IMG/VR virus record: IMGVR_UViG_3300050581_000229
Source of the DNA: an uncultured virus (IMG/VR IMGVR_UViG_3300050581_000229)
Taxonomy: Duplodnaviria > Heunggongvirae > Uroviricota > Caudoviricetes
Direction: 5' to 3' (one strand)
DNA: 64,000 nt
This document shows positions 1,932 to 50,932 of this stretch, piece after piece; position 1 is the stretch's first letter, and each line of letters begins with the position of its first letter. Made by a program: the position numbers and the translations under genes. The notes under the pieces were generated by a model that had not been told where the DNA came from, ran no database searches, and was given only the letters and a program-made list of their open reading frames with translations.

Positions 1932-2286
1932 CCAGATATTCCTGTAGGACATCGTCATTGCCCTGGCATTCGTAGTCCCAATAGCCATACCCCCCTTCGA
2001 GCTTGCATATCTCGTAATCATGGTCGTACAGGAACTCTACGAAGTCGGTTGGGCTCCCAGCCGCATCAGTCCCCTGAATGCGGCTCACGAGTTTGCGCCA
2101 GAAGGCGGCTCGCTGTCTGAAATACTTATGGCGTTGTTGGCGAAACACTGCACGAGTTGTTTCTTCCAGATCAGGCTCCCCAAGTTCCATGTCGTAGCCA
2201 TTGAACTTGCGGTCCGCAATGACATACGCAGACAGATAGGTCATAGTCCTCATTTGATTTGCCTCGCGAGCGTCATGCTCTGGCAT
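1918..2286 (-). CDS. Hypothetical protein (start may be about 2253)
   Basis: Coupled ORF in the leftward operon. Confidence 0.5.
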   Translation of the reverse strand: MPEHDAREANQMRTMTYLSAYVIADRKFNGYDMELGEPDLEETTRAVFRQQRHKYFRQRAAFWRKLVSRIQGTDAAGSPTDFVEFLYDHDYEICKLEGGYGYWDYECQGNDDVLQEYLDGRG

Positions 2287-2639
2287 GCCACGGTGGATGG
2301 GATTGCGGCGATGTCGTCGTAGCAGACAAACCGCTTGTACGGCTTCTCCAAAGCCTCCCAGAAATCCAGGAAGCGCTCGGGCTTCCAGACTTGCATCAGA
2401 CGATCCATCGGCCTGGCGCTATCCGCCTCGGCTTCCCATACCTCAACGCCATCAATCCAACGCAACCTGGCAGCGAATGTCTTTGCCGTCTCAAGGTCTG
2501 AGAAAGCCAGAAGAAGAGCATGGGGATTCCTCGGCATCGTCGGTTCCCCTGGCACGTAGGTGACGCAAAGCTCTCCCCGCGTCACTGCTGATACATGTTC
2601 ACCGCTGTGTACTCTGCGGACAACTTTATAAATCACCAT
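2250..2639 (-). CDS. Phage hypothetical protein, paralog of 1557-1931
   Basis: IYKVV..TYVPG..LLAF..L..A..VWEAEAD..STVAC. Confidence 0.65.
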   Translation of the reverse strand: MVIYKVVRRVHSGEHVSAVTRGELCVTYVPGEPTMPRNPHALLLAFSDLETAKTFAARLRWIDGVEVWEAEADSARPMDRLMQVWKPERFLDFWEALEKPYKRFVCYDDIAAIPSTVACQSMTLARQIK

Positions 2640-2740
2640 ATAGTTGAAAAACTCTTGATAGATAGGGCCGGTGAACCGCAAAGACCGGCAGTGAACAAAA
2701 GCTACTTGGAGGTTCCGAAAATAAAATCACGGTTCTTACG

Positions 2741-2864
2741 ACCCAGGGGTGGGAATTGAACCCGCACAGTAGACGTGATGGCCTACCACACTACCGACTG
2801 GCCTATTGTGCTATCAGTCTTACCAGATTAACAATCCGGCGCTCTACCATTGAGCTACCCTGGG
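2741..2864 (-). ncRNA. tRNA-Asn(GTT)-like RNA with a ~57-nt two-hairpin variable region
   Basis: Acceptor CCCAGGG/CCCTGGG, D-arm GCTC-AATGGTA-GAGC, anticodon arm CCGGA-TTGTTAA-TCTGG, T-arm GCGGG-TTCAATT-CCCAC. Confidence 0.8.
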
Positions 2865-2881
2865 CAATAGCCACTAACTAT

Positions 2882-3035
2882 CTAGTACGGCGGGAGTCAG
2901 ACCCGCTCTTGGCATTAATCTCTTCTTGCGAGCAGCAACAGAGTCATCCAAGACCAGCCTTTTCGGACTAATTCGTCCTACTTCGGTGCTCTAAGTGCCT
3001 TCGGCTAAAAATGCCTCACGTTCGGCCACGTACTA
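2882..3035 (-). ncRNA. tRNA-like RNA with expanded anticodon and variable arms
   Basis: Acceptor TAGTACG/CGTACTA, D-arm GCC-GAACGTGA-GGC, T-arm GCGGG-TCTGACT-CCCGC; about 105 nt of structured insert (TAGCC/GGCTG, GGAC/GTCC, TCTTGG/CCAAGA). Confidence 0.65.
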
Positions 3036-3103
3036 ATGGATGGGTGGGATTCGGACCCACGCCTTGCCCGTCAAGACCTATTCTTCCGTTGAACTACCAT
3101 CCA
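3036..3103 (-). ncRNA. tRNA-like RNA with shortened anticodon arm (pseudo-tRNA)
   Basis: Acceptor TGGATGG/CCATCCA, D-arm GTTC-AACGGAA-GAAT, T-arm GTGGG-TCCGAAT-CCCAC; no canonical 7-nt anticodon loop. Confidence 0.65.
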
Positions 3104-3271
3104 TCTTGGGAATCTTCTTCATCCCAGCATATCTCACCACTTAAGCAGGTGACGCATCTCAGTCTAAGCACTGATCTTGCTCTGCCTGTTCCTGTTGTCT
3201 ATAGCCAGCGGGCACGGCAGTATCCCGATGCTTGTGGTTAGTTGCATTCCTACAACTTCGGCACAAGCAAG

Positions 3272-3379
3272 CGGGGCCGACAGGACTCGAACCTGCGTAG
3301 CAACAGGATGCCCCGTTGCCGTTTGCTTCGCGCATAGGCTTGCTCCTGACGCTAACAACCCACCCTTTATCTCGGCCCC
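3272..3379 (-). ncRNA. tRNA-like RNA without D-stem, with long variable-arm hairpin
   Basis: Acceptor GGGGCCG/CGGCCCC plus G, T-arm GCAGG-TTCGAGT-CCTGT, hairpin GCAACGGG-GCAT-CCTGTTGC before the T-arm. Confidence 0.65.
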
Positions 3380-3450
3380 AAATGATCCGCCGACTGGCTT
3401 TGGGCCAGTCGGCTTCAAACAACACATCAACAAAAACGGTAGATGCCGTG

Positions 3451-6649: not shown

Positions 6650-6698
6650 AGTTGGGCTCCCAACCGGGGAGAGCCTTGGGTGGCTCTCCCCTTACCGC

Positions 6699-7055: not shown

Positions 7056-7787
7056 GATTTCTCCTAAAAACCAGATTTCATTCAAAACGGTAGATGTGCT
7101 ATTACGCCAAAGGGATTCTGTTTATCCTGGCACCGCATCGGTTGACGAGACCTCAAGCGCGGTTGCCAGACGCATCCCACTCCTTAGAGGAAAGAGAGCG
7201 GTCAACCTCTCCTGGCTGCTTTCAAGCCCACCTTTCTACCAACAAAAACGGTAGGTTGGCTCTTAATTGGGCATCCGCTGGCCTACCCAGGAAATAGTCT
7301 TATCGCTGTATTTGGTGGAATTCTCATGATCGAAATAGCCCCTATCTGGCGACCAAGACTTACGCGGATGTACTCTCACCACATCACCCACCCCAGGAAC
7401 CTTTGAGCTTCTTGGACGCCACTTCCGGCGCTTTCTATTTTTGGTGCACCACATATCTACAGCCCGCGTAGTTCCTTCCTTCTGGTTGGGATCCCAACTG
7501 GGCATCCATGAGTCTTACCGCGTACTCGAACACTTCATCCGCAATCCGCTCATCCCTTTCTCTTGTTGCCGGGCTGCGTGAATCCCGTTGATTACGCCAA
7601 TAACTATCCCAATCTGGCGATATATGTCCATCCCTGCGAACCATGTGGACGCTTTTTGGCAGTGGCGTGTGTTTTCTGCAATATGGTTTGCTCATTGCTA
7701 TTGCGTTTTGGGTACAAGAGGCTTCATAATTGTGCCGCGAAAAGACAGCAGTAGCTTTATTTGCGTAATTCTGTCTAGGGTCTCTTC

Positions 7788-8264: not shown

Positions 8265-8380
8265 GTGATACCCCTATTAATCTTCCTCAAGCCAAGCAAT
8301 TCTCCGCGTGCCTGTGGCATATATCAATCTTTCTTGATCCCCCAAGTCATGTGCCCGTAAGGCGTTGCTTGTAACTCTCA

Positions 8381-9208: not shown

Positions 9209-9249
9209 AAAAATAAAAAGAGGGCAAACCCAAAATAGGTTTACCCTCT
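9209..9249 (-). terminator. Intrinsic terminator
   Basis: Minus strand hairpin GAGGGTAAACC...GGTTTGCCCTC followed by a T-rich tract. Confidence 0.75.
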
Positions 9250-11277: not shown

Positions 11278-13878
11278 TTAAAACCCTAATGACGCCCAGT
11301 ACGCGGCGTCATCTTCACTGTGATGATTCGCAGCGACGTGCTCTGCCACACCAGCAGGGATTTCAATCCGCGAATCATCTTCAACCGAAACGGTAGAGAG
11401 TTCATGGAACGTCTCAGCCACGAAAGACGCTCTCTTGCTTGGAGTTCCATCGGCCTTCTTTACTGGCTTGAAACTGACTAAATAGCGAGTGCCAATTACC
11501 GGAGTAGCATCGCTCTGTGCGATGATCGCGTACTTATCCAACGCATTGCGATGCTCATCGAGGAATTGGAGCTTCACCGTGCGCTCTCCGCGCCGAGTGA
11601 TAACCTCGCGGGCTTCGGTTACAACCTGATCTTTTGGATATATGGTGCGGCCATACACTATTCCACTAAATACAACTGGCTCCTTCCCAGGTTGATAGTC
11701 CTGGCGGATTAGATCGAAGCAAATGTCCGGCAGCGCGGCAAAGAACAGGCTCCCTTTACTGTTTTCAGACTTCGTGAAGCATTCCCACAGGCCGGATGCA
11801 GCGGATTCCAGCTTCTCGCGGCTCCAAACACCTACCACGCTGGCCCAGGTATTGCGCCAGGCTTGGAATATTTCATGGCGGCGGGAATCCACATCCTCCT
11901 GGCACTCATACATCTGGCTTAATGCCTCTACTGTCTGTTTGTAGAAAGCAACTGCTTGGTCGTGCCCCTCGCCAGAGCGAACCTTGATCCAAGACGCAAA
12001 CTCATTGTTTGGCCTTGCGGTCCAATTCACCACCGGCATGTCCTGGTAGAAACGCTTGCCTAATGGAGTTCTATCGCTCACGAAGTGTGTAGGATTGATA
12101 ACTGTCCCGTATTTAATTGCCTCAAATACGGTATCTTTGTACTTTGCCGCGATTTCCTTGTGCTCCATATCGCATACAGTCCACGGATGGACCTTGCCGT
12201 TGCTTAACTCACGGTGAGCCACGTCGTTCTTGGTGATAAACAACCGAGCCCACTCGCGGATCGCGTTGACCAGATCGCGGTCCGGCGCACTAAACTTCTT
12301 AGCCGAATCCACTGCCTTCTGAATCTCTTTGCAGAGAATTGCAGTAAGCAGGCCCACAAAACCATTGAGACTTGTTGGAATATCAGCTTTAGGATCGCGT
12401 GCAACCAGCATCTTGCGGAGCTTGGCAAGTTCAGGGCATGAGCGCATGTTCATCCCAATGCGATACGCTGTCACAAGGTCGGAGAGCGTATTGTTGGGCT
12501 CACCCACGTTCACCGACATCATGGTAGCCAATGCGTCGGCGCGAGATTGCGGGGTTGGAGCCTGTTCTGCGCGAACCTTATGTGGAGATGTCTCAGAATT
12601 AGCACGCAGCCAGTTCCACCACGCTTCCGTGGTTGGGCTCCCAACGGCAACGAAGTTGCCTTCGTCACCATCGAAGTCCAGCGCAGCGCGGTTGCAGGTT
12701 TTGTTATTAACGAAGAAGCACCCTTCCGGGGTATTCACGTCATTGACACATTCCACCGCAAACGCAGCGCGGGATTCCACAAATGGATTGCGGATACCAA
12801 CATACTTGCCTTCAACCAGGCTCATTGGGTTGGTGCGGATGACGCCATCGGGGAGCAGGTGATCGCACTGGGCCATGAGACCTGTGCCGCGCATACCGCC
12901 GGTAAGTACGATGCGCAAAGCCATCTTCGAGATAACCCCTTCGATTTGGCGGGTAACGCCCGTCATATACAGGAGCTTGTTATTCCCGATGTCTTTGCAC
13001 AACTGAGATAGGGACTTGAGGATGGTGGTAAATGCAACTTCGTCATCCTCATCGCGGATTTCTACCGCTTCAGCGAAGGTCTCTGGATCGCGGCTGATCT
13101 CCCAAAGGTGCTTTATCGCGGCAGGGGAATCAACTGCAATCGCGTCATCAACGGCCTTTGGGAACTTCTCTGCCACCTGATAGCCAATCTCAGACACATG
13201 AGCTTTGGCGAGTCTCACAACGCCCAATGGGAACTTGGTTTGGAAGAACTCGGGCAGTTCCGCGAGATTGCCTTTTACCATGCTCTTCGGGAGCACGAGA
13301 TCGACACCATCCGGCAGATCGGCGGGAGCAACAGTGCCCTTCACAACCACGCCGGTAGCTCCGAAATCGAAGCAACCGCGTACCTGGCCGACGCCATAGA
13401 GACCAGCCTTTGCACCCCAGGACTGGCGATACAAGCCGGAGCCATCGCCACACATCGGGTAATCATCCGCAACGCTCTGCACACCACCGGCAATCATGTG
13501 GATTGAAACGCATGGAGTGAACAGCACTCCCAGGCGGATGATGTCTTTGACACCAAACCAGCCGTCGAAGTGCGCGGCAGTCTCATCGTCCACGGCATAC
13601 AGCATGGACGACTTCGCAGACGAATTGGCATTGATAACGCGGTAGTGCAATCCTTCGTGCTCGATCCCTTGCTCTGTCAGGACTTTGAGCGCGGCAGGCA
13701 AATCGCCTTCCTCGCGGAAAGCCTTGAGATTCAGGATGATGTAGCGTGCGCCGAGTATGTCGATGAGCTTATGGAAGTATTCGATACGCTTGGTTGGGCT
13801 CCCAACCGTGAATGGAGCACCAGGATTTAAGGTAAGAATAGTGATCTCGCGGGCGATATTAGTTGTAGAATCTTGCAC
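11278..13878 (-). CDS. Single-subunit two-barrel RNA polymerase, YonO / eukaryotic-RdRP-like
   Basis: GDGSG (D145), QVRG..VVKG..LPKSMVK, GIRNP (R363) and DFDGD (401-405) in canonical order; GTG start with AGGAG RBS. Confidence 0.9.
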   Translation of the reverse strand: MQDSTTNIAREITILTLNPGAPFTVGSPTKRIEYFHKLIDILGARYIILNLKAFREEGDLPAALKVLTEQGIEHEGLHYRVINANSSAKSSMLYAVDDETAAHFDGWFGVKDIIRLGVLFTPCVSIHMIAGGVQSVADDYPMCGDGSGLYRQSWGAKAGLYGVGQVRGCFDFGATGVVVKGTVAPADLPDGVDLVLPKSMVKGNLAELPEFFQTKFPLGVVRLAKAHVSEIGYQVAEKFPKAVDDAIAVDSPAAIKHLWEISRDPETFAEAVEIRDEDDEVAFTTILKSLSQLCKDIGNNKLLYMTGVTRQIEGVISKMALRIVLTGGMRGTGLMAQCDHLLPDGVIRTNPMSLVEGKYVGIRNPFVESRAAFAVECVNDVNTPEGCFFVNNKTCNRAALDFDGDEGNFVAVGSPTTEAWWNWLRANSETSPHKVRAEQAPTPQSRADALATMMSVNVGEPNNTLSDLVTAYRIGMNMRSCPELAKLRKMLVARDPKADIPTSLNGFVGLLTAILCKEIQKAVDSAKKFSAPDRDLVNAIREWARLFITKNDVAHRELSNGKVHPWTVCDMEHKEIAAKYKDTVFEAIKYGTVINPTHFVSDRTPLGKRFYQDMPVVNWTARPNNEFASWIKVRSGEGHDQAVAFYKQTVEALSQMYECQEDVDSRRHEIFQAWRNTWASVVGVWSREKLESAASGLWECFTKSENSKGSLFFAALPDICFDLIRQDYQPGKEPVVFSGIVYGRTIYPKDQVVTEAREVITRRGERTVKLQFLDEHRNALDKYAIIAQSDATPVIGTRYLVSFKPVKKADGTPSKRASFVAETFHELSTVSVEDDSRIEIPAGVAEHVAANHHSEDDAAYWASLGF

Positions 13879-14216: not shown

Positions 14217-14219
14217 GTT

Positions 14220-15279: not shown

Positions 15280-16551
15280 GCTTACTTAATGCCGTAAATC
15301 GACCAGAAATCGCCTGCTTTGGCGTCCTGGTTCAAATTGAGACAATGCTGGCGGAGCGCACCAGTCTCCATGCAGCCGATCAGCATCCCTCTGTAGAAGT
15401 TATCCTTCAACTTTTGGGTAGCTACGGGCGTTGGCTCCTGAATCGGATTAGGAATACGTGGAGCAATAGCCGTTGGCTTGACTCTCGCGGCACTTGTTAC
15501 TCCTGGTATGCACAATCCAGCGATGAGCGCGGCCACGAGAATCACAAGCACGACGATATGAGATTTGTGTTTCGTAAATCCTCCATAGACAAAAAAGACC
15601 CGCATGATCGCGGGTCTTTCACTGAATACGGTAGATTTACTTAAGGATCGTGGCGTATATAGCACTGAAGTCAGATGGCTTCATTCTGCTCAGCTATTAC
15701 TGGTTGGGACCCCAACTGGTACATCGCGGATATTAACGACCTGCATACTTCCTCGCTTTGCGGCGGTCTGTTAGTCGCTTGCGCTTATCGCGGCTATTGC
15801 GCATGGCTTGGCGCTTACGGCTCCATCGCGGCTGATCGTCATCATCAATTGGCTTATCTGCCCGATTCCCCTCAGCTACATCTATAGGGATAGGATCGTT
15901 GATGCCCGTATCGGCCTTATACGCGGCCGAGGCCACACAACGGGAATGTGTGCCCTTCATTGAGCGGTAGAAGCGCTCATGGCACTCGATGTAGTCCACC
16001 CTGAATCCTTCGCGGGTAAAACAACCATTGGGGCTGGATAGCCACACTTTCGCGGGAGATATTCTCGTAACGCGGCCACCTTCGCCCTCAATATACTGAA
16101 TCTGCTTACGCACCTGCTTCCAGGTGCCCCAGAAGAACGTTGTCCTGTTTCGATAGCGGAGTAGTTTGCTCATAGATGAAGTCGCTTGCGCAGCAATACT
16201 CGTCGAAAGAGACCTAATATGCCCACTCAATCGCGGCACCGATAGCATCAACCGGATGATTCTCTATATGCTCACTGTGCTCGTGATAGAGGATAAGAGA
16301 AGATGAATGGGCTCCTTTGTTATGTAGTGAACTTTTGAAAGAGAGGGGAGAATGGTTATCCCAAGCGGGAGGGGGATTTTATCCCAAGTCACCCCTCCAC
16401 TTGGGATATATTGATACTCTTTATCTCCGTTTACGCAACACTCCCGCAATGAGTGCGCGGCTCCGACTCACTTCTACCGTTCTTGGGGAGCGAGTGCACT
16501 CCCCAGGAGAGCGGTAGATTACTGTTTACTATTTCGCTCTCGGGAGCGAAA

Positions 16552-16788
16552 ATGCAAAACATGAAGCGATACACAGCTAAAGGTGCTGCCAAGGCGTTGG
16601 GGATTAGCCCAAGTACGCTGCGCAGCCGAGCCAGAGTGAGAGGGATTGGGTCTCACCACGGGCGGATGTGGTACATCCGCGAAGACCAACTGCCCGCGTT
16701 GAAAGCGAAGGGTAGACGCGGCAACCCCAACTGGCGCGAGGCGAAGCGTGGAAACCAAGTGGATTGGCGCGATCTCCCAGCCGCGTAG
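16552..16788 (+). CDS. Small HTH DNA-binding protein (MerR/excisionase-like)
   Basis: YTAKGAAKALGISPSTLRSRA..G.MWYI; GGAG RBS. Confidence 0.8.
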   Translation: MQNMKRYTAKGAAKALGISPSTLRSRARVRGIGSHHGRMWYIREDQLPALKAKGRRGNPNWREAKRGNQVDWRDLPAA

Positions 16789-16927
16789 TCAGTCGAACAC
16801 CCGTTCTACCATGCCCGATTTTGGCCTTCCCAGGGCCTACAAGGGCCTTCTACCGTGATGTGCGAGTAAATCTCCATGTGCACGGTAGAGGCCTCGCAAA
16901 TCGCTTCCTGCGCGGTTGGGCTCCCAG

Positions 16928-17224
16928 CTAATAGGGGAGATCAAGGGATAGTGAAACGATCACCTCTGTCGCATCGAGAACGCCAAGTTCTCTCAAACCA
17001 CGCCAGAACCACATATAGGTGTCGCGGCTGACTGGGGTGCCAAGCCCAATCCCGCCATAATCCAGGCCCCACTCGTCCGAGCACACGAAGTAGTTGTGCA
17101 ACGGGTGATCGTAGCCGTGCATCAATTCAACCGATTCGCCGGCGATGGCCGGGGCTTTGACGCCAGCGAGCCTGCAAGCAGAAGACAGTTGTGCAGGGGT
17201 GACAGTTGTGAAGTATTGGGACAT
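16928..17224 (-). CDS. Hypothetical protein
   Basis: AAGGAG RBS; GYDHPL..YF. Confidence 0.65.
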   Translation of the reverse strand: MSQYFTTVTPAQLSSACRLAGVKAPAIAGESVELMHGYDHPLHNYFVCSDEWGLDYGGIGLGTPVSRDTYMWFWRGLRELGVLDATEVIVSLSLDLPY

Positions 17225-17551: not shown

Positions 17552-18226
17552 TTACCAGGACACCACGTAGCGGATCGCCTGTTGACCGTAGATCGAGTCG
17601 TTGGGGCGGATGGCGGATACGGTGGCCTTGTGCTCTGTAGCGATCTTGTTGGCAGCATCGCTGGCCTGGCTGGGTAGCCCTTCAACGATAACTTCGTGTG
17701 CGCAAGTTGCCATTACAAAGAAACCGGCCTTCATCGCGGGGTCAGAAGCCTTTTTCTGGCTCTCGTGCACAGGATTAACACCATGAGCCGCGAGCCAACC
17801 GCGATAGTCGTGGTATAGAGCGCCATCATTGCCGGTCTTCACAAGCTCCCAGCCAATAGCGCGGTTACAGACCGTGCGATAGAGCTCTCCCTGCTTGGCC
17901 CACTTGTCAGCAAGCTTGCGAAAGGCGCTCTTCTGCCCGGATTTATGGGCATTGGAAGCGTTAATGATCGCGTTCTTAATGCTCCCGCCGATGGCTTCGA
18001 GTACATCGTGCTCGATCAAATGCTCATTCGTGTTGATGGCAGTTGGGCTCCCAACCGCCTGCTTGTCTAGTACGTTGTGGCGTGCATCGCGCATATAGAC
18101 GCCAGCCTTATAGAGAGAAACAGCCTCATCGCGGGTAATCTGCACCTCACGATTGCCACTGCGAGCCATAAAGCGGTTGTTATCGAGGACAACGAAAGAA
18201 GAAACAGAAGAGCAGTTAATAGACAT
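17552..18226 (-). CDS. Hypothetical protein
   Basis: GGAGG RBS before ATG at 18226. Confidence 0.65.
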   Translation of the reverse strand: MSINCSSVSSFVVLDNNRFMARSGNREVQITRDEAVSLYKAGVYMRDARHNVLDKQAVGSPTAINTNEHLIEHDVLEAIGGSIKNAIINASNAHKSGQKSAFRKLADKWAKQGELYRTVCNRAIGWELVKTGNDGALYHDYRGWLAAHGVNPVHESQKKASDPAMKAGFFVMATCAHEVIVEGLPSQASDAANKIATEHKATVSAIRPNDSIYGQQAIRYVVSW

Positions 18227-24288: not shown

Positions 24289-24690
24289 GTGATGGCCGAT
24301 GAAATGCGGGAGAAGTTAGCAGAATACGCGCACGAAGCATGGGCGGGCTGGATGAAATACCTCTTCGAGAAGTCGCAAAAGAACTCCGATGGCACGGTCA
24401 CTATCCCGAAGTGGGCCGTGGATCGTTGGGAGCGCCAGGCGGCAACACCCTACTGCGAACTGCCAGAGACCGAGAAGATCAGTGACCGCGACGAAGCGGA
24501 CAAGATGCTCAAGATCACGCGGCATCCCGACCTCGGATATGTCATTCAGGATGGCTGTTTGTGGCGCGATCACGGTGATTGGATGGATTTGGTGCGCCGA
24601 CAGGATGCAATTCCCGGCGATTACATCCACATTGATGACGAGTGCTACGTAGTTGAAAGCGTTGTTCGGGCTCGCAGGGAGGATTGCTGA
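24289..24690 (+). CDS. Hypothetical protein with RyR-like motif
   Basis: LAEYAHEAW..W...PY.ELPE.EK.SDR. Confidence 0.6.
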   Translation: MMADEMREKLAEYAHEAWAGWMKYLFEKSQKNSDGTVTIPKWAVDRWERQAATPYCELPETEKISDRDEADKMLKITRHPDLGYVIQDGCLWRDHGDWMDLVRRQDAIPGDYIHIDDECYVVESVVRARREDC

Positions 24691-33290: not shown

Positions 33291-36200
33291 ACTCAAGCAG
33301 TGGCAGGAATCCCTGAGAGGTAAGGGTTTTGGCAATGCCCAGGTTTGGCTTGACGAGTTCAACGGGTCTCCCTCGATAGTTATCTCCCCCGATCCGGGGC
33401 GAATGAACCCCGTTCGTATCGACAAGTTTCAACATCGCGGAGATATATACAGCGCCTATGGGCGTGTCTTCTCCGGTGCAATGGAACTGCCTGAGAACGG
33501 TAAACCAACCCCCTTCAGCCCTCTCGAAGACCTGAGTATGCAGGTGAAAGCCGCGATTGGATATGCAGCCGAGAATTGGCAATCCTCTGGCGATGCCGCG
33601 TGGCAAGACCCAAGCTGGTTCCAGAAGTCCTTCACGAACTCCTTCATGGCGTTGACCTCCGGCTATCGTGCTGCCACATCTCCCCTAAGCTCGATGCCGC
33701 AGTATGCGTTAGACCGCGAGGCGTCCACACGCCTAGTGCGCAGCAGCAGCCCCAATGCCAAAAGCCTGATCCAACAATATGCCACCCGCAACAGCCTTAT
33801 ACAGGCTCAGGACTTCGGTGATATAAGTGAGCCCGAAGAGGCAAAATCGAACTCGATGTCCCTACTCTCTCCAAAGGGGATAGGGAACTACACTCTGTCC
33901 AATTGGGATTACCAGAACGGCCAAATTTCCTTCTATTCCAACAAAGGCCAGAAGGCTCTTGAGGGTCTTAAACTTCCACAGCGTCTAAAGCTGGACTTCC
34001 GCCAACGGGCGGAAATTCAGGGGCGTGAACCGATAGATTCCGGTAGGTATGGGAACTTCTACTCCTCTACCTACCGCTTTATTAATCCTGGTGAACAGAT
34101 CGGTTCCGGCTCGGCTGCTGCCAGCCCTGAGTTCTTGCATCTGCGCGGCCTTGGGGCTGAATCCACGCATGTACAGGTCATTCCACGAGATATGGCACTC
34201 ACGGACCTGAAACTATTGCGCCCAGGTTCGTATGGGCCAGGGAAGTTGGCACTCGCCACACTAGACGCAACAGGTCAAACGGTAGACGCGGAGGCGACCG
34301 GCGCTCAGTTCCGCACAATCTCGGATGTAGGAATCTCCCTTGGCTACGGGAAGCACGTCGCTGAGCAGACTCAAAACATGCTCCGTGTAGCGGAGATGGC
34401 AGACGAGCAGATCGATGTCAATGGAACCAAATACTCCGCCTGGGAACTGACAAATTCGCTCGCGAGTCTACAGCGCGAGACTAAACCGTTTGCAGATGCG
34501 TTGATGCCAACGCTGTCACGCGCTTACAACAAGATCACTGGGAACGACGCGACATTCACATTTGGCGGTGTTTCCAGGGGGCAAACCGGGATTCGTTTCA
34601 CGCAGCGGCTTGGCTATGACAACCTCGCTAACAAGCTCGATTCAAAGATCGGTAATTACTACGAGCAAGGTCTATCCGAGCAGTTGGGAGCCCAACACAT
34701 CGATCAGGCGTTTGGGCCGGATGTTATCAAGCAACAACGCACTTTCCTCGCATCCAATATCCTGGGGGTCTTCGCGTCTACTGACCCACGCTTTGCTGCC
34801 GCGCAAGCATATGTCAAACAGCAACTCTACGACCCCATCGCAAAGACTGATCCATCCTATACGCCCAAGCAGTTCCAGGAAGATGTGTGGGGATTGCCCC
34901 AAGAGGCTATCTCTACAACGATGCAGGGCATGGAATCGTTGCTTCCACGCGATGACTATGGGAATGTAATCCGAACTAGAGCCATCACGATGACGCCGGA
35001 ATACCACGGCAGGATTTCTCGCGTCAACCAGGAAACGCTTGACACGATAGCACAGGTATCGCCGGATTTGGCAGCTTCATTCGCAGACAGAAGCAATGGC
35101 ACGAATTACGCCATGATTGCGGCGATTCAGAACCGTGGCGGCTACGACATCACCAGTGCGCTCGCCCAAGAAACTCGCGGCCTATTTGACCCGACCGACC
35201 CATCCATAACACCACATGCGCAAGCTGGCATTATTTCCGATTGGCTCAAAAACATTAGCCCGGATGGTCACGACCTGTCGCGGGAAATGCTCACAGTACG
35301 CCAGGGAGATAAGTCCTACTCCGTCCTACCGCCTTCGGTGATGAGCCAATACGCAGAGCACGGTGGCGACTTCTTCAATATGTGGGCAGGCATCTTCGGG
35401 CCTGAAAAATATGCCCAGTATCAGGACTATCAGGGCCGTAATCTAGCCACGCCGCTTGAGGTTACTCGTGCCGGTCGTCTTGAGCAATATGGCGGTGGGC
35501 TTCAGGCTCAGGATACAGATGAGCTTCGCAGAGGCGCGGAAACCTTTCGTGGAACAGTAGGTGGGACGTTCAGCTACACATCCGCCGATTTCGTGAAGGA
35601 TAACGAGATCATCGTTGGCCCCGAACAGGTGCGGATGTTTGCAGAGCAGATGGGCGAGACGCCAGAAGAGGCGTCACTAATACAACAGAAGCTTACCGAG
35701 CGCCTGCAAGACCCGAACGCGAAGCGATTGGGCATGATTGGTCGCGGCTGGCCTGGCGTTACCGATGCGAGCGCACTTACCCTTAAGTACAACGAGAACG
35801 TCATTTCTCCGACCGTAAGCCGCGCATATCAGATGGCCCACGTCCGCGATGAGGACGTAGATAAGTCGGTCTTCCTCGGTGGATTCCGTTGGGATAAGGA
35901 TAAGCAAGACTTTGCGCCTCTACGTGGTATGGGCGAGTTTACTCGTAATAGCCTGCCCGTCAGCGCGCAAGCTCTCACGACGTTGTGGGCGATGGGTGGT
36001 GACCGGAATTTCAGCACCCGAGCACAGCAGCTTGCACTTGCACATATCGGCAATGGGGCCGAACCGAGCGTCAAGAGTGGGATGCCGCTTGTTCGGGCAC
36101 GCGACTTCACACATGGCTTTGGCGACATCTCTGCATATAACCCAACCATTGAAGGTTTCGGCCAGAAAGGACAAAACCCCTGGGCGGAAGCACGCCAGGA

Positions 36201-39200
36201 GGCAATTGACTTCGCTACCAGCACTGGCGTCCCTGGACTGGCGAAGACTGTAGCAGCCGTCACTGGTCCAGCGTCTATTCTAGGCAGAGCAGTCGGACGC
36301 TATAACGATGTTCACCAAAAGATGGGCATTTGGAACTTGCAGAAGATGCTGCAAGGAGCGCTATCTGATGACAACACAATCAACCAGGCATTCCCACGAT
36401 ACGGTGAAACGCTTCGTTCTACTATTAGAAACGAGTACGGCGAGGATGCGGCAAATATCGCTTCGCCCGCTCACCTCGCGAGAGAATCAATACGTCGCAT
36501 TTACCAGGCCCCGCTTGATCTGATTGACCCGACCCTCGGCTCGAACGGCTCAGCCGCGCAGTGGGTTGAGCACCTTGGCAAACTGCAATACGACGCCACG
36601 ACCTCCCCGAACCAGCGCTTGCAGGGGTTGCTTACCTCGATGACGAATGGCGGGAACGGGAGCGAGTACGTTTTTGACCCAGAGACCATTGGAGCCTTAT
36701 TTGGCCGTCATGGCGATACCACGCACATGCAGGCAATCAGCGAGGCGGTAACGAACTACCGAAGCGGTGACACGAACGCGCTCAATGGTCTGGTGAGTAT
36801 GGAAGATTCGGATAACGCTTCTGGTGCCCAGACATTGATTGAGACTGCGCAGGCATATCAGTTCAATGAAAAGATTGCCAATGGTGATGTGTCACAGGTC
36901 GGGACAGATCGTTATGAAATCCGCAGCGGTCGGAACGGTTTCATCGTTGGGCAAAACACGATTGACCGTTACAAACAACTCACGAATACCCCGCTCTATG
37001 GGCAAATCGCCCAGATGCTAGGGAAAAAGACCAAGCGCGGTCTTGGTGAATTTGTTCGTGGGCTGGCTCTCTCTCCATCAGCAAGGCGGCCAATGCTTCG
37101 TGCCCAGGAACGACTTGGCCTAACAAAGCCATTCCTGAAGGCAGACTCCAACGGCCTAATGACGGAGCCAGCAGATGACACACCGACACCGCCTGCTGGT
37201 GCGGCAAATGGCCCTTCACCGCGAGTTGGGAACCCAACCGCTTCCGGGCCTACGCATGGTGGTGGTGGCTCACAGTACGGTGGCGGCAGCAATAGGCCAC
37301 CGGCTAACAACACACCAGATGATCCATTTAGCGATATGCCACCAGACAACGGCGACCCTGGTGTATCCAGCAATACCGCTGCACCAAGTGGCGCTGGCAA
37401 CTTCAACGTCAACATCAACTCGGATACCTTCGAGAGGGGGATCTACCGTGCAGTTAGGGATCATCTGACGGAGCAGGCAGGCCCGAAGTGGCAGGGTCGT
37501 GCTACGAGGCCAGAAAATGTCGGTACATTTGAAAACCTGGTTTCTCAAATCGGCCCGAATGGTGAGTTTGATTTCGAGAGCCATGCTCAGGAGCTTGAGG
37601 GCCTTGGATACCGCGAACGTGGCTTCTTCCGAAATGTGAGCGATTACTACTCCGGCAAACTACGTGCAAGCAATCAGCGGTTCTCTGCTCGCAACTCAGC
37701 CTGGGGAATGTACTTCCGAGAAGATGCAGACCTGGGCAATCCCACAAGAGGGCGTCTGCGCTCCATTGCCGTAGACATGCAGAATGGCGAGTCCGAGTAC
37801 ACGACTCGCTTCCCATCCGGCGAACAAAGCCCCTCCCTCTCTGCGGGTGACAAGAACTCCATTGATGAGTTCACGGCCAAAGTCAATGAGGCCCGCGATG
37901 CACTAAAAGACAACATCGCCAACATCCGCGAGCACACCAAGACCATTGGCGCGGCAAAGGAAGTTTGGCAGAAGATCACGCAGAGTCAGGCCGGGTTAGT
38001 CGAGGCGCGTGCTCAACTGCCCGATTCGGCGGCGACCACGGCGGAGGGGAAGGCTGCTCTCTCAAGCTCTCGTCGCGTGCAGGCGGGCCAGAACGCCTAC
38101 GAGACCATGATGCGGGCGGAGCTTAAGGATCAAGGATTCCCCGACCAGGACATCAACTCTGTCTTCTCGCAATCAGGTGGCAGAAGCGGTAAGGGGGTAC
38201 TCAATACACTTGCCGGGCATCTCTTGAGCGGGATGGCCGAGTTTCAGATGGCTCGCGGGTATCGGGCAACCGTACAGCCAATCATTAGTGCGGCGCAGGG
38301 TTATTACCAGCAAGAACTTACGGCTGCGGGTGCGCTCTACCAATCAGGCGGACAGGGGAAGCTTTCGGACATTCAGGGATACTCCGCCAGAAACACGCTT
38401 GCCGATATAAGCACTGGATTCGGTCGAAACGCCAACTCATTCGTGAGTGGCATCACGAATCTAGTCGGGTCAGGGAATGGATCGGGACTAGGAGCAGGGC
38501 TGGTTGGGACAGCCGCGACGGTACTAGGGCCAGCAGCCGGGACCGCTCTTATTGCCGGGGCGCTTGGGGCAAGTGCGCCAGTAGTGGGTGGTCTTGCTCT
38601 GGCTGCTGTCGTTGGCTCGCTTGCATCCTACGTCTCAGGTGCACAAAGTAACCCGGTCGCAGCAGTTCAGTATGGGACCACCAAAGGCGCTTCCATCTGG
38701 AATGATGCTACTGGATTCTTTGCTGACCAGGATTATGAAAATAGGCAAGCAGCACGCAAGGCGTGGAGAGACAGGCAACAAGGCATCCCGAGTGGTGGTA
38801 GTGGCAGCCAGCAAGGGATGTCGCTTTGGGAGAATATCGCTGCCGGATCAAGCGGTGGGACGTTCGCATCTCCTGGGTTAGCGAACATCTTTGGTCCATC
38901 AGCCAGTGTCACATATCCGACGCCTGAACCCTATCTCGACCAGAAAGCACGAGACGAGAAGATCGCCCAAGCTAATGCGGAGATCGCAGCAAAGGGTAAG
39001 TGGGCGGTTAGCGAGATGTCACCTCTCGCGCAACAGGCCACGCTTACCGGCAACATCCCCAACTATATCGCCCAGACATACACCATTGGCCTGGATACCG
39101 CGAAGAGCCTTACTTCGCTTGTCTATGGTGTTACCCAGGGGCCAGAAGCTCAAGGTGCGCTTGAATACCTTTCTGATGTCACCTCTCGCGGCGGTGATGC

Positions 39201-41729: not shown

Positions 41730-44700
41730 GCTTCACGCAAGATGAGGGCGTTATCGCCACGCTCGAAGCGCAGGATTCCCGCGCCGTGTGGGGCGAAGTG
41801 CTATCCGAGAACCAGCTTCTACAGTTCTCGGAGGTCGGAAGCATCAGTGATACGGGCACGTGCCCCGGCGTTGCGCGATCTGTCGCGCCCAGCTATCTCG
41901 CCGGGGTAGACTCTTCCGGCGTCCTATATCAAACGGCCTGGAACCCCGAATCGCCGTATTCGTGGACTATCGGTTCCGCCAACTCAAGCAGGAAGCGCCT
42001 GACGACTCAATACCTCACAAGCCTGCATGGGGATTGGGACGGCTATCGGTATTACAGCGCTTGGTTCACATGGGGCGGCAACCCCCAGGTGTACGTCACG
42101 AGCGGCGTTGGCGGACCCTCAACGGCATACGGCCCGCAAATCCCGGTCACGATGGTCAATTCCGCGTCAAAGGTCGTGCGCGTGGACAGCGTGTGCCACA
42201 CCTCGCTTGGGATCGTTGTGGCAATTGGGTACTACAACTTCGGGGCTGTCCTTGCAACGCAACGTTACTGGCTCGTCACCTCAAATAGCGCGCAAGCACT
42301 CAACACGTTCGTTCAAAGCGCACTTACAGATACCTATTCCACCTGGTACGGCGTGAACCCGGAATGGTCTAGCGTGTACGCGCTGGATGATGGCCGGAGC
42401 ATTGAGGTAATCGCCTACGATGGTCATAGGCCCTGGCAATTCCGCGTCACGAACGGGATCGAGAGCCAGCTTGAGATGGTCTACCCCATCGACGACACAC
42501 TATATTCCGACGATTCTCTCCCGGAACCGACTTGCAGGCCAAATGGCGTCTGGAAGATGAACGGCTTGTACTATCTGTGCAACACCGTTACCCGCCCGTT
42601 TACCGATGGAACACAGGTGGAATTTGAGATGTATCAGACATCCGAAGACCTGAAAAACTGGTCTATCGGTGAATACTCAAGTTTCGTGTGCGCCAGCGCT
42701 ATCAACGGGTCTTTGTGCAATGACGGCACGTATGCCTACTGGCTCGGAAGCGGGGTGCTGTATAAAGCCCCGCTCCGCGTCATCGACGGCGTTGGGATCC
42801 CAACCGACGTTTCGGGCAAAATCATTGACGTGACCATCGACCGCGCTGAATCCAGTTCGGACTCGGTATCGGTGGACGCCTTCAACTACCAGCTTGTCAA
42901 TAATCTGTCTGTCGGGAATCTGCTCACGATCAGCGCGGGATACTACTCCGGCGATAGCAGGTACGGCGTTACCCTCGGCAGGTTCGCGGTAGATGAGCAA
43001 CCCGATCCGATCACGCCAGCCGGTAGAAATACAAGCTCAGTGAGCGCGATTGATGTTGGCTCGTGGAAGCTTAAGCAGTGGGCGGCACAGACGGACATAG
43101 ACCGTTGGAGCAGGACGGTCATCCAGTCTACCCTCGGAGATATGTCTGAAATCCTGGTGCAAACGGCGCAGCGGGACGTGCAATTCGGGACCGCGACAGC
43201 CTTTAGCTCTGTGGCTCTTAACGATCCATTTGTCGCCACAACCTCGACACAGGATGGCCGCGATGGGCTCTCCAAGATGACCATGCGGTTCACCAATGAG
43301 GATAGTTACTCTCTCACTTCTGCCGCCATGCTATTTGGCGCGGACACAAACGGGAACGAGAACGCGGTATTAATTCCTCTGGCAAACGGATGGAGCGGGC
43401 ACATCCAGGCATTGCCAAAAGTGATGACGGTCAACACGGGCAACCTATCTCGCGATCCTCACGCGACAGCGATGTGGGAAACGATCAACGCGGACACCAT
43501 CGCGTCCCTCTTCCATGTGCCCAATGCAACAGCGGGGAGCGAGGAATACTACTACTACCCAAGCAGCGCGACGGCCACATCTCCGAACGTGGACTACCAG
43601 TACACGACCCGTGTGAGCGGTAGAAGGGTTCAGCTATATCGCAAGATCGTGGATCACACGCTCAACATGGCCGACAACGCCTGGACGACACCCGTTATGG
43701 AGTATCGCTTTAACGAGACGGCCAGACAGAAGTTTGCCACCGACACGTATTGGGGTTACGGGTGCGGAACCGACGTTCCGGCCTCTGCCGAATGGTTCCG
43801 GCAGGCTTACTACGGCGACATGGAGTTGCAGCTAACCGATGCCGCCGATTCCGCAAACAACTACTCGTCTTACACCGTCATGTTGAAGGGTGACGTATCG
43901 CACAACGATGCCTACGGGAGCGACTATCAATTCCTGATTGGCACGGATGGGACGATGAGCCGAATCGCGGGAAGTACCTTCTCCGATGAGACGCCGATCT
44001 CCTTCTTCCACGCTGGCATGAAGCTATTTATCCCGCCCTGGGGTGTGAAGACGGTCCAGTCTGTTGATAGCAGCGGCAAGACGGTGAAGTTCTCTGACTT
44101 GAGCCTGAGCCATTCTGGGTATTACAACGTGTATGCGCTAGGCCCGACCGACACGTGGGGCACGGCGGACTCCGGGTACTCCAAGACCACCACCGACGAT
44201 GGCTACACCATCTACACCGACACAGGCGCTTCATATACCGATGTGGTTGTTGCCGGAACAGGTTACTTCGTGACGGACGACCAGACAGCCGGTTCGATTC
44301 GCCGCGTGGAGACCAATGGCGTCGATCACACGCTGAAGAGTGGCAACGAGATGTCTGGTGCGGGATGGGACGAGACAAGCCCAGTGAAATACGGCGCAGA
44401 CTCGTGGCGGCTCATTCTCCATCATGGACGTTTCTTCATCGGGAAGCCATCTGACTTCGGGCTCCCATCTCGCGGCTACTTCATCGTCGATGACGAAGTA
44501 ATCCGCTACTACACGTCCGTCGCCTACAAGCGCGGCGACTATGGTGCGCATCTCGCGGCCAATGCAATCTACTGGTGCGAGGTGCCGACGTTCTACTCCA
44601 CGATCAACGGGGCAGCCGCCAGCGCCACATCGTTCACCAATTGGGGCTCTAATCCCGGCAATGGGTTTGGCGACATCGAGGGCGCTCTTGGGGGAACCCT

Positions 44701-48576: not shown

Positions 48577-48596
48577 TGCGTAAAGGATGATGGATC

Positions 48597-49583
48597 ATGG
48601 CTGATAACTACACGGCTACGCCTGGCAGCGGGCTAGCTTTTGGTGCTGACGAATTATCGATTGGTGGGGTAACGGTATTAGTTCCGCGAATCAAGCTCGT
48701 AGTAGGATCCGATGGCTCTGGTGCAGACCTCGCGCCAGGACAGGCCACGATGTCGGCATCCCTGCCGGTCGTGATTGCTTCCGACCAGGGCAACCTCCCG
48801 ACCTCAATCGCGGCTTGCCCAATTACTCTGCCGGTAAGCGCAACTATCGCAGTCGATTCTGTCGGCTTTGCAAAGAACGACACGCTGACCGATGGGACGC
48901 AGAGGTCGATTGCTCGTGGCGCGGCGATGGGGACGACAGCCGCAGCCGACATTACGGGGACTACGGAGGGGGATAACCACCAGGCGCTTGATGTCCAGGT
49001 CTACAGCGGCGGCACGGCTGTCAATCCGGCTGAAATCCGCGCACTCACTACTAACGACAATATCTCAACTACTCCCGTCGCGAGCGAGGTTCACGTCGGC
49101 GAGGTTGGCGGCAAGATTGCCATCGCCACGTCCTCGTTCGCTCGCCCGAACAACACGACACAGTACACGGCTGGCGACGCGCTAAACGCATTTGAGAGCG
49201 GTTCGTCGCTGAATTCAATCGCCGTTGGCCGCATTAACACTGGGAACGGTAAGATTCTGGCCGCGACACTGACCGATAGCGCGGCACAAAGCGTGAAGGG
49301 AGATTTCACGCTTTACCTGTTTGACGACGCGATCACCGCTCCACAGGATAACGTGTTGTTCAACCCCACCGACGCGGAAATCAAATCCTGCCTTGGGGCA
49401 ATCCAGTTTGCCAATCCAATTTCCCTACCGTCCAATTGCCTGTATGAGGTAAATGATCTCAATATCGGCTTTCAATGTGGGGAAAACACGCAGAACATCT
49501 TCTGGGTGCTGGTGGCGAACAACGCCTATACCCCGGTGGCGAACGAGGAATTCTGCTTGCGATTGCATGTTGAGCAGAACTAA
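48597..49583 (+). CDS. Probable virion structural or decoration protein
   Basis: GQATMSASLPVVIASDQ; RP.NTT.Y.AGD; beta-sandwich-like C-terminus. Confidence 0.6.
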   Translation: MADNYTATPGSGLAFGADELSIGGVTVLVPRIKLVVGSDGSGADLAPGQATMSASLPVVIASDQGNLPTSIAACPITLPVSATIAVDSVGFAKNDTLTDGTQRSIARGAAMGTTAAADITGTTEGDNHQALDVQVYSGGTAVNPAEIRALTTNDNISTTPVASEVHVGEVGGKIAIATSSFARPNNTTQYTAGDALNAFESGSSLNSIAVGRINTGNGKILAATLTDSAAQSVKGDFTLYLFDDAITAPQDNVLFNPTDAEIKSCLGAIQFANPISLPSNCLYEVNDLNIGFQCGENTQNIFWVLVANNAYTPVANEEFCLRLHVEQN

Positions 49584-49614
49584 CACTTGACAATAACTGA
49601 TTAGGTTTCAGAAT
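49584..49614 (+). promoter_or_regulatory. Sigma70-like promoter, copy 3
   Basis: CACTTGACAATAACTGAT identical to 21798-21815; CAGAAT at 16-nt spacing. Confidence 0.55.
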
Positions 49615-49677
49615 GAAATGGACCGCTGGCGGGTGGCCCATAGACGGCATGGCGGTGCGTTGACGTATTGGTGAGCC

Positions 49678-50175
49678 ATGAATGACACTGTGTTGATTGC
49701 ATTGGGCGGAACTCTGATTACGAATGTCGCGACGGTTGCTACTGTGCTCTTCCGCCTGCGGGCCAGCCGGACCACGATAGAGGCAAATGCCGCCGACACG
49801 ATCCAGAAGGCGGCAGCGGCATTGGTCGAGGAACAACAGGGGAGAATCCAGACGCTACATGATCGTGTGGACGCTTTGGAGAAAGAACGCGAGTCTTTGC
49901 TTACGCAGATTCAGGCGTTGACGGTCATCATCACCTCGATGAAGGAAGACCATGCCCGCGAGCGGAGCGAGATGGAGCAGAAGATCACCGCGATGCAGAA
50001 GCGCATTGATGAGTTGGTGGCAGAGAGAAATGTGTTGTTAAAGCAGATTGAGGCGTTGAAGAATGGAAGAAGCGATAGCGCAGATGCGGGAAATGGGGGC
50101 ACCGTTCAGCCAGATAGCGGCAAGCCTGGGAATGACCAAGGATCAGGTGCAGAAAATCTACAAGCGAAAGGTTGA
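49678..50175 (+). CDS. Membrane-anchored coiled-coil protein (lysis-associated candidate)
   Basis: N-terminal TM segment plus long heptad repeats. Confidence 0.65.
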   Translation: MNDTVLIALGGTLITNVATVATVLFRLRASRTTIEANAADTIQKAAAALVEEQQGRIQTLHDRVDALEKERESLLTQIQALTVIITSMKEDHARERSEMEQKITAMQKRIDELVAERNVLLKQIEALKNGRSDSADAGNGGTVQPDSGKPGNDQGSGAENLQAKG

Positions 50176-50908
50176 ACCTTTTGTCATAGATGAAACCTGC
50201 AAGCCTGTTCCAATCCCGCCGCCGATGGAGGTGCGCGGGGACGCGGTAGTGGTCAGCGACGTGCATGTGAACGATACGGACGAAGCCCTCGTTACGCGGT
50301 CGGCGGAAGTCAACCTGGATATCCTCATCATCGCGAGCGATTTGTTTAACATGGCCGCGTTCTCGACCTTCCCGAAGACGGATTACCCGGAGAGCTATGA
50401 CGCGGAGATGGACCTGGCCGAGAAGCTGATGAAATACTATCTGCGGTACTTCAAGGACATCTACTGGATTACCGGGAACCACGACGAGCGGCTAACGAAG
50501 ATGACCCGCGCAGAATACGGGCTAAAGGATGTTGTTCGGAGCGTCGTTGATAGCGCGGATCGGCCCAGGGTGCACTTCAGCCCCTTGAACTACATGTACC
50601 TCTTTAGCGGGGATCGGAAGTGGCTGATCGCGCACCAGAACAAGTACGCGAAGACCAGATTGCTCAAAGCACAAGCGTTGTGCGACATCCATCACTGTAA
50701 CGTGTTGACCGCGCACGAGCATCACGCGGGAATCACGCTATCGCGGGATGGTCTGTACACACTGGTGAACAACCCCATGTTAGCCAACGACCCGGCTTAC
50801 GTGAAGGAGCACATCTCCGATATGCCGCGAATGTGCAAGGGGTTCAGCGTGATTCGCGAGGGCCGCGTGGATCAGTATGTTGAAGGGGCCTTGTTCGGGC
50901 TCCAATAG
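50063..50908 (+). CDS. Calcineurin-like metallophosphoesterase with N-terminal HTH
   Basis: SDVH, SDLFN, GNHD, AHQ, AHEH; G.PFSQIAASLGMT. Confidence 0.85.
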   Translation: MEEAIAQMREMGAPFSQIAASLGMTKDQVQKIYKRKVEPFVIDETCKPVPIPPPMEVRGDAVVVSDVHVNDTDEALVTRSAEVNLDILIIASDLFNMAAFSTFPKTDYPESYDAEMDLAEKLMKYYLRYFKDIYWITGNHDERLTKMTRAEYGLKDVVRSVVDSADRPRVHFSPLNYMYLFSGDRKWLIAHQNKYAKTRLLKAQALCDIHHCNVLTAHEHHAGITLSRDGLYTLVNNPMLANDPAYVKEHISDMPRMCKGFSVIREGRVDQYVEGALFGLQ

Positions 50909-50932
50909 CGGTTGGGCTCCCAACCGGAGGCA

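Follow-up and report, generated by a model that had tools for sequence, protein, structure and literature searches.

The 64,000-nucleotide stretch of DNA analysed here (below, the window), which belongs to the IMG/VR record IMGVR_UViG_3300050581_000229 of an uncultured Caudoviricetes virus, raises the question why one 14-bp palindrome should recur throughout it, often inside genes. The palindrome, GTTGGGNNCCCAAC, has ten exact matches in the window, whereas none occurred in any of 100 dinucleotide-preserving shuffles (mean 0.00); with one mismatch allowed there are 13 matches versus 0.13 expected. An initial annotation, made from the sequence alone, had listed ten exact and three one-mismatch copies together with their central dinucleotides, and every one of these was placed correctly (Table 2). 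The leftmost 63 kb of a prophage of about 74.7 kb, integrated at a tRNA-Asn gene, lie within the window. Two further exact copies lie inside this prophage past the end of the window, at window-equivalent positions 66258 and 74362, so that the earlier statement that no copy occurs beyond 51 kb holds within the window but not for the element, which reaches to about 75.6 kb. The word of the prophage, GTTGGG-N2-CCCAAC, is thus present in 12 exact copies, and in 15 sites when the three one-mismatch copies are included. It is confined to the phage and belongs to a lineage-wide habit in which the spelling of the word changes from phage to phage. We propose that it is probably the recognition site of a phage-encoded, two-fold symmetric (dimeric) DNA-binding protein.

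Confinement to the phage is evident from the nearest genome (5.6 Mb), which shares 100% of sampled words with the window. All 12 of its exact copies fall within the prophage. One-mismatch copies number 19 in this genome, three of them in the prophage and 16 elsewhere, and a control with the reversed pattern gave 18 matches. Of 49 other genomes of the host family, one contained a copy, and only a single one. The initial annotation had considered that the palindrome might turn out to be a host motif of equal density along the chromosome. Given 0 exact copies outside the prophage, one-mismatch copies at the level of the control and a copy in just 1 of 49 family genomes, a host motif can be ruled out. 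Sites that organise the host chromosome, such as those of the parS, Noc, MatP or SlmA type, are excluded because the chromosome has none, and a hairpin resembling repetitive extragenic palindromic (REP) elements is disfavoured on the same grounds.

Within the element the arms are paired at the 2-base spacer only, with no other arm spacing found in a scan of the whole element. Half-sites on their own are not enriched (33 and 37 hexamers, those of the 12 sites counted in, versus about 18 expected), and no other palindrome of the element exceeds two copies. The flanks of the word show a weak preference only (R before, Y-G after), so the word is not part of a longer mobile repeat. Sites are most densely clustered between 12.6 and 18.1 kb, where five of them (one-mismatch copies included) are found.

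An exact scan of IMG/VR for GTTGGGAGCCCAAC returned 77 stretches, among which a single contig (G051) contained two copies. This contig is unrelated to the prophage (no tblastn match), and the word there is the tip of longer terminator hairpins: at contig positions 12592 and 16943 (loci L081-L082) the 14-mer GTTGGGCTCCCAAC tips two longer terminator-like hairpins (aaaaagcggctg...cagccgctttt). Close relatives of the prophage were found neither in INPHARED (50,697 phage records, by DNA megablast and by portal tblastn at E 1e-5) nor, with the 866-aa protein described below, in IMG/VR; none turned up either in the JGI metagenomes, searched with the same protein and with the portal, or in a sample of 400 further genomes of the host phylum, searched with a capsid-region protein.

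More distant relatives were reached through the portal protein, which has 439 relatives in a library of 1.84 billion proteins, the closest at about 40% identity. An alignment of 12 portal relatives led to 80 IMG/VR loci and four loci on genome contigs, and GTTGGGNNCCCAAC is present in none of these 84. In 19 of the 84 loci another palindrome with arms of 6 bp is found three times or more, a count to be read with the limits that loci are at most 21 kb long, that some are of one phage and that one of the 19 (L167) is to be left out. The latter was discarded as a tandem array reached through a chance-like 14-residue portal match. It is a contig of a Hydrogenedentota metagenome-assembled genome (MAG) in which a single repeat (CCATGCT...) recurs about 69 times, probably as a tandem or CRISPR-like array.

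We therefore compared whole genomes. The lineage set was made up of the prophage together with 13 whole contigs (54-90 kb) from portal-related uncultured phages, which have in common with the prophage the terminase, the portal, three further structural genes and a giant protein. The top palindrome with exact 6-bp arms of each genome is given in Table 1.

Table 1. Top palindrome with exact 6-bp arms in the prophage and its portal-related relatives.
Genome	Palindrome	Copies
Prophage	GTTGGG-N2-CCCAAC	12
G450	TTGGGA-N2-TCCCAA (word TTGGGAATTCCCAA)	22
G451	GCTTCC-N3-GGAAGC	14
G452	TTCTGC-N-GCAGAA	24
G453	AGAACCGGTTCT	17
G454	TTCGGC-N2-GCCGAA	20
G456	TTCGAT-N2-ATCGAA	22
G459	TTCGCA-N-TGCGAA	15
G461	TTTCCG-N4-CGGAAA	13
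G462	TTCTCG-N-CGAGAA	14
G460	CTCCAC-N3-GTGGAG	6
G455	ATTTCC-N4-GGAAAT	4
G457, G458	none	at most 2

Such a palindrome occurs at least 12 times in 10 of the 14 genomes. With arms of 5 bp, TTTCC-N4-GGAAA occurs 23 times in G455. The complete relative G458 has no palindrome; it has 15 copies of the asymmetric word AGAACCGA[AC]TA[TC], while G457 contains near-palindromic 12-mers only, in 4-5 copies, which is weak. In sum, 12 of the 13 whole contigs have a dispersed word of their own (6-24 copies), mostly a palindrome and mostly intragenic, which with the prophage makes 13 of 14 genomes, and no word is common to any two of the 14. The seven letters AGAACCG are found both in the G458 word and in the G453 palindrome. 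Ten viral contigs of 46-60 kb without the portal served as controls. Their top palindrome has at most four copies, and their top dispersed 11-mer at most six in nine of the ten, the exception being G467 with 13 copies of an asymmetric one. The habit of carrying such a word is therefore near-universal in the lineage and rare in the control, but not unique to the lineage. The private word of the unrelated G467 (loci L234-L236) consists of the 11-mer CCAATACCTAC and words overlapping it, in 13 dispersed copies.

Across the relatives the arms are separated by 0, 1, 2, 3 or 4 bases. Because the arms are conserved while the spacer takes any of these lengths, a protein dimer on duplex DNA is favoured over a hairpin, and the two-fold symmetric protein site that the initial annotation had suggested is the best fit. 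How the spelling changes can be followed in two loci with about 76% DNA identity: one (L121) has only TTCCGA-NN-TCGGAA (three copies), the other (L157) only TTCCGG-NN-CCGGAA (two copies). One pair of copies lies in corresponding 3' ends of the portal gene, in a gapped alignment, and the remaining copies are without counterpart. Between these two sequences sites turn over and the word changes symmetrically, a substitution in one half-site being mirrored in the other.

Most copies lie in coding sequence. In the prophage, 8 of the 12 exact copies are inside open reading frames (ORFs) of the automatic set, and across genomes between 8 of 12 and 17 of 20 copies are deep in ORFs. Sites outside or at the edge of ORFs are more frequent than the non-ORF fraction would predict, with 22 of 92 sites in five genomes versus 4.6 expected (about 4.8-fold, summed by hand). 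Many of these sites either follow a stop codon by 1-5 nt or precede a Shine-Dalgarno sequence with its start codon by 10-25 nt, and on manual reading of the sequences some are next to good sigma-70-like promoters. Directional words follow transcription: 14 of 15 copies do so in G458, as does the centre ACA/TGT in 12 of 13 cases in G451, and elsewhere there is weak or no bias. In G458 (L195-L199; e.g. contig positions 35594, 40280, 53437 and 62034) about 11 copies were read manually as following a -10-like box and preceding the next ribosome site. Several genomes have their densest cluster of sites 5-15 kb upstream of the terminase gene. Spacing is more even in G450 than in any of 5000 simulations and to a lesser degree in G454 (P = 0.025), whereas in G451 and G452 it is not more even than random.

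In the prophage, two copies touch ribosome-binding sites, as the initial annotation had stated. The GGGAG within the copy at 6651 lies 8 nt before a GTG start at 6649 on the minus strand, and the copy at 50911 is followed by GGAGG and an ATG (Table 2). The copy at 74362 (L001:10754-10767) lies 3 nt past the integrase stop codon, ahead of a strong terminator. A copy is likewise located just downstream of the integrase gene at contig position 51315 of G461, which like the prophage has a tyrosine integrase.

Selection on the word acts at the DNA level. The peptides VGSPT, VGNPT and VGIPT that had been noticed earlier are indeed encoded at five sites (Table 2), and three further sites (34683, 7485 and 66258) fall in a different reading frame and give LG(A/S)Q. 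Peptides of the form VGxPT number five, versus 0.31 expected from composition (ORFs of at least 100 codons; 21,173 codons). All five are written GTT-GGG-NNC-CCA-AC, for which the chance is about 0.006 each, the share of every one of these codons in its family being only 25-30%. The peptides are absent from homologues of three proteins in which several of the sites lie (866, 2694 and 1506 aa). In the three genes that are homologous between the prophage and G450, the sites of both phages are in gapped or low-complexity loops, and no site column is common to the two. These alignments suggest that the word is written into tolerant parts of proteins and that the peptides are a by-product.

From this pattern we infer that a protein binds the word, that it is dimeric and of phage origin, and what its binding would do. 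A dimeric protein would read double-stranded DNA at about a dozen places across the 75-kb genome. At the few junction sites, past a stop codon or ahead of a ribosome-binding site, the bound protein might gate transcription into the next gene. At the sites inside long genes, which are the majority, it would most likely act as a roadblock to elongating RNA polymerase or as a genome-wide mark, comparable to the stoperators of Cluster A mycobacteriophages. The word and its reader would co-evolve fast, giving each phage its own spelling, and this phage-specific spelling might set the specificity of immunity or self-recognition. We put forward a stoperator-like role in transcription in particular only tentatively, with somewhat less than even confidence.

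A number of observations weigh against such a protein site. No binder of the word was found in this analysis. The only Pfam-recognisable DNA binder in the window is a helix-turn-helix (HTH) protein of the HTH_17 family, which scores just under the curated cut-off. The initial annotation had named it as one candidate binder; it has no homologue in the relatives and no site in its upstream region, and nothing ties it to the word. HTH_17 is typical of excisionases. A second candidate reader is a 184-aa protein (window-equivalent 69588-70142), encoded by the lone rightward gene in a leftward replication arm. It is kept in G450 and G455, but only the G455 copy weakly matches MerR/HTH_17 (E 0.03-0.05), there is no site upstream of the prophage gene, and this protein, too, is in no way tied to the word. 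Clustering of 1568 ORFs of the 14 genomes by phmmer and jackhmmer revealed no family whose presence follows the trait; what it recovered were genes for structure and replication alone, which every genome has. Likewise, no common DNA binder was detected by Pfam in 125 element ORFs (63 + 22 + 39 + 1) and 275 ORFs of G450, G452 and G454, or by NCBIfam among 11 candidates, and the ORFs scanned contain no Phage_integrase-domain protein other than the one adjoining attR. None of the three divergent intergenic regions of the prophage (13879-13979, 16450-16551 and 18623-18703) contains a site, no prophage site is on a predicted sigma-70 promoter, and a classical operator role is therefore not visible. 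Sites in the prophage are not more evenly spaced than random (P = 0.48), and the bias of their centres by strand is weak (AG 9 versus CT 2 in a manual reading of all 15 sites; 5 versus 3 in an automatic count of the 12 exact sites). Tyrosine integrases are encoded by the prophage and G461 and serine integrases by G450 and G451, but none was found in the complete word-bearing relatives G454, G458, G459 and G460. A function restricted to integrated lysogeny or prophage silencing is consequently unlikely.

Other explanations have to be set beside the dimeric protein site. The word might be a strand-specific hairpin in mRNA or single-stranded DNA that is read by an RNA-binding regulator or a nuclease, and would then serve translation control or be a processing or priming signal. 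We consider this unlikely. It would suit the intergenic copies that lie shortly ahead of Shine-Dalgarno sequences and start codons in many genomes, the copy that provides the GGGAG of a ribosome site in the prophage, the strand-biased centre in G451, the co-orientation of the G458 word with genes, and the RNA stem of 5-7 pairs that forms on the word at five of six folded sites. However, the word is unused in the minimum-energy fold of one of these six, fold energies barely beat those of shuffles (z -0.6 to -2.2), and no Rfam family matches at the sites. Spacers of 0-2 bases in relatives leave just 4-5 weak pairs, as in TTCTGC-N-GCAGAA and AGAACCGGTTCT (four A-U-rich pairs in the latter). Furthermore, there are no compensating pair changes in the arms within a genome, and most copies are deep in ORFs. 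It is quite improbable, too, that the sites are targets of a phage nuclease or DNA-modifying enzyme that marks or structures virion DNA, either by nicks as in T5-like genomes or by a modification. The element does encode two HNH endonucleases (7788-8264 and 10783-11271), two glycosyltransferases and a protein with a weak match to the 'nucleotide modification associated' family DUF1599, relatives encode C5 and MT-A70 methyltransferases, and a structural mark would be in keeping with the evenly spaced sites of G450 and G454. Against this, no nuclease or modification gene is common across the lineage, and known phage nick sites are asymmetric and strand-specific.

We give little credence to centromere-like or chromosome-organising sites akin to parS, KorB operators or Noc sites, to which a ParB-family clamp of host or phage would bind. 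Known sites of these types resemble the words found here, being palindromes of 13-16 bp, many of the form TTC...GAA or TTG...CAA, and about a dozen dispersed copies would be in keeping with them. But an integrating prophage needs no partition, the host chromosome is without copies outside the prophage, and no ParB-family domain was found in the ORFs scanned (63 + 22 + 39 of the element and 275 of three relatives), which speaks against the parS-like sites and host ParB considered in the initial annotation. The same annotation had also considered signals for a phage RNA polymerase, and a promoter, pause or terminator signal for a phage single-chain RNA polymerase is the explanation that we find least probable. 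Its subject is the 866-aa protein, which has only two homologues among 5.8 billion clustered proteins, with the DFDGD loop invariant in all three; the loop reads DYDGD in G450, and DNDGD in a similar context in SPbeta YonO. It has no Pfam, PHROG or NCBIfam match, its sole PDB profile match is to the active-site region of RNA polymerase III subunit RPC1 (E 1.1), and hhalign found no significant relation to YonO (probability 1.9%). We regard it as a candidate YonO-like single-chain two-barrel RNA polymerase. A gene for a DxDGD protein is present in the prophage and also in G450, its nearest relative, and each of the two genes contains two sites. However, G451, G452 and G454 have 14-24 copies of their words and, apart from giant structural genes, no large ORF with DxDGD. 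A homologue of the 866-aa protein was detected by protein search in one of five relatives, and an 819-aa protein at the matching map position in the complete G454 is unrelated. The DxDGD protein being found only in the prophage and G450, the phage RNA polymerase is not the reader, and the habit persists without it. A palindrome within long genes is moreover an unlikely promoter, and the word is not among the clear intrinsic terminators of the phage, which are long G+C stems followed by T-runs; specifically, it was not among 22 terminator-like sites in window positions 1-20000, where the clearest stems have 9-16 pairs ahead of the T-runs. The promoter used by YonO is described as unknown (PMC5467207). 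The observation that each of two RNA polymerase genes contains two copies was right as to the copies, two in the 866-aa gene and two in the 2694-aa gene, but the polymerase label of the latter is unsupported, as the 2694-aa protein has no DxDGD loop and no family or PDB match.

Among described systems, the closest is the dyad repeat of Cluster O mycobacteriophages, a 17-bp sequence TGTTCGG-NNN-CCGAACA (PMC4351075). The two share invariant inverted arms around a variable centre and copies that are spread over a genome of about 70 kb, in coding and non-coding sequence and mostly off promoters. Its authors likewise predicted a dimeric DNA-binding protein, described the function as not known, and, the habit also being present in phages without integrase, made the same argument against a function in lysogeny only. 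In contrast, Cluster O has 34 copies, about a third of them intragenic, whereas the prophage has 12, of which 8 are in ORFs, and Cluster O consists of five near-identical genomes with one word, whereas we describe a deep uncultured lineage that re-spells its word in each genome. No sequence relation to Cluster O phages was detected by the INPHARED searches described above.

The best-understood functional analogue is the system of operators and stoperators of Cluster A phages, bound by repressors of the L5 gp71 type, which are dispersed, differ in heteroimmune relatives and block elongation (PMC6550527). These are 20-30 short sites confined to the phage, mostly off promoters and many of them in genes, and their consensus differs among related phages and sets immunity specificity. 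An orientation that follows transcription is a hallmark of stoperators, and it is matched by the G458 word and the G451 centre. Unlike the prophage word, which is palindromic with a weak centre bias, stoperators are asymmetric 13-mers and always oriented. Also unlike in Cluster A, we identified no repressor gene, and no integrase was found in four complete relatives. A third comparison is offered by the SPBRE repeat of SPbeta. It is about 15 bp long and confined to a large prophage that encodes a single-chain two-barrel RNA polymerase, YonO, and ChAP-seq (chromatin affinity purification with sequencing) showed it to be bound by the master repressor MrpR (YopR) (PMC10516654). There, SPBRE is in promoter regions of about ten genes, whereas sites here are mostly intragenic with none in a divergent promoter region; and MrpR has a tyrosine-recombinase fold, whereas the sole such protein found here is the integrase next to attR.

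The att repeats place the right end of the element at about 75.6 kb, and the end suggested in the initial annotation was too early. Ordinary cellular genes are found outside the prophage on both sides, and G+C content is about 0.51-0.56 within it and about 0.58-0.61 outside. A leftward arm encodes an RNA ligase, a single-stranded DNA-binding protein (SSB), HNH nucleases and the 866-aa protein. It is followed by a rightward arm for lysis and structure, in which lie the genes for terminase, portal, an SU10-like adaptor, glycosyltransferases and proteins of 2694, 1506 and 777 aa, and by a leftward replication arm with Erf, a primase-polymerase and a DnaB-like helicase, at the end of which lies the integrase. 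Few prophage ORFs match PHROGs. Coordinates are summarised in Table 2.

Table 2. Copies of the prophage word and other features of the element, in window coordinates unless stated otherwise.
Feature	Position	Strand	Location	Remarks
tRNA-Asn (GTT), integration target	806..878	-		ARAGORN; Rfam 71 bits
attL, direct repeat of at least 51 bp	835..885		overlaps tRNA-Asn	exact repeat; right copy at window-equivalent 75591-75641
One-mismatch copy GTTGGGCTCCCAGC	2048..2061		inside ORF 1918-2286 (-)	read AGSPT
Exact copy	6651..6664		between SSB gene (6699-7085) and gene 6179-6649	GGGAG of word is likely Shine-Dalgarno of gene 6179-6649
Exact copy, centre AT	7485..7498		overlap of ORFs 7263-7505 and 7435-7695 (-)	LG(A/S)Q type
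Candidate single-chain two-barrel RNA polymerase, 866 aa	11278..13878	-		invariant DFDGD at residues 401-405; two sites within
Exact copy	12632..12645		866-aa gene	VGSPT, six residues past DFDGD loop; homologues have AATPW, PDEVV there
Exact copy	13793..13806		866-aa gene, codons 25-29	VGSPT, in stretch unalignable to homologues
Exact copy, centre AC	15703..15716		intergenic	38 nt upstream of start of gene 15282-15665 (-)
HTH_17-domain protein	16453..16788 (16552-16788 from the ATG)	+		Pfam E 1e-05, 26.1 bits; curated cut-off 27
One-mismatch copy	16915..16928		convergent junction after HTH gene and gene 16928-17224	
Exact copy	18042..18055		inside ORF 17552-18415 (-)	VGSPT at codon 121
Portal gene, lineage anchor	24684..26285	+		Pfam SPP1_portal 8.7e-12
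One-mismatch copy GTTGGGAGCGCAAC	30996..31009		glycosyltransferase gene 30198-31325	read VGSAT
Structural-module protein, 2694 aa	33259..41343	+		in 13 of 14 lineage genomes; two sites within
Exact copy	34683..34696		2694-aa gene	read LGAQ
Exact copy	37225..37238		2694-aa gene	VGNPT; low-complexity loop adjoining alignment gap versus G450 homologue
Exact copy	42791..42804		1506-aa gene	VGIPT; next to 6-residue alignment gap in G450 homologue
Exact copy	50911..50924		2 nt past stop of gene 50063-50908	GGAGG directly after, then in-frame ATG at 50933
Tyrosine integrase	L001:10771-11784		just inside right att copy	Pfam PF00589 E 6.6e-33

The host may be a member of Chloroflexota, as hinted by the nearest protein-atlas cluster of a flanking FolD and by one distant relative in an Anaerolineae MAG; sequencing runs with this DNA are labelled anaerobic digester metagenome. 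On the assembled contigs prophage depth equals flank depth (two DNA runs of one study), and three variants were seen, none within a site. Some further features of the element were noted. A low-G+C island at 52000-58000 (0.46-0.48 versus about 0.55), whose ORFs at 53857-55994 and 56891-59159 are nearly without family matches, may be an acquired accessory cassette. Rfam places a second tRNA inside the prophage at 2741-2864 on the minus strand (52 bits, 124 nt, full model) that ARAGORN did not call, and its length suggests an intron or insertion. At 29610-29708, inside the structural gene 29205-29756, two contigs of the nearest assembly meet with a 99-base overlap. RNA ligases are encoded by the prophage, G450 and G454, and G452 encodes a Ro60/TROVE protein with a vWA domain (L179:14701-16308, E 1e-39), so that the lineage seems rich in RNA-repair genes.

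Dispersed palindromes private to a phage have been in print since at least 2015, the Cluster O report (PMC4351075) giving neither a reader nor a function. What the present analysis adds is this word and the phage that carries it, along with evidence that a single deep lineage retains the habit but spells the word anew. Besides correcting the boundaries of the element, the result unties the RNA polymerase candidate from the word. A broader and rather speculative view, to which we assign a low probability, is that the words are genome 'barcodes': a private word of 12-16 bp every few kilobases, read by a fast-evolving protein in temperate and apparently non-temperate members alike, by which a phage would tell its own chromosome from host and related-phage DNA, whether to package it selectively, to shield it from the phage's nucleases or to exclude relatives. 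Such self-recognition, if real, would stand apart from immunity of the repressor-operator kind. The pattern of a kept habit and changing words points to a conserved function that depends on a protein and a DNA site evolving rapidly together, and the lineage offers many natural variants of the word for identifying a reader. Should that reader determine immunity or self-recognition, one could tell from the words which phages are expected to exclude each other.

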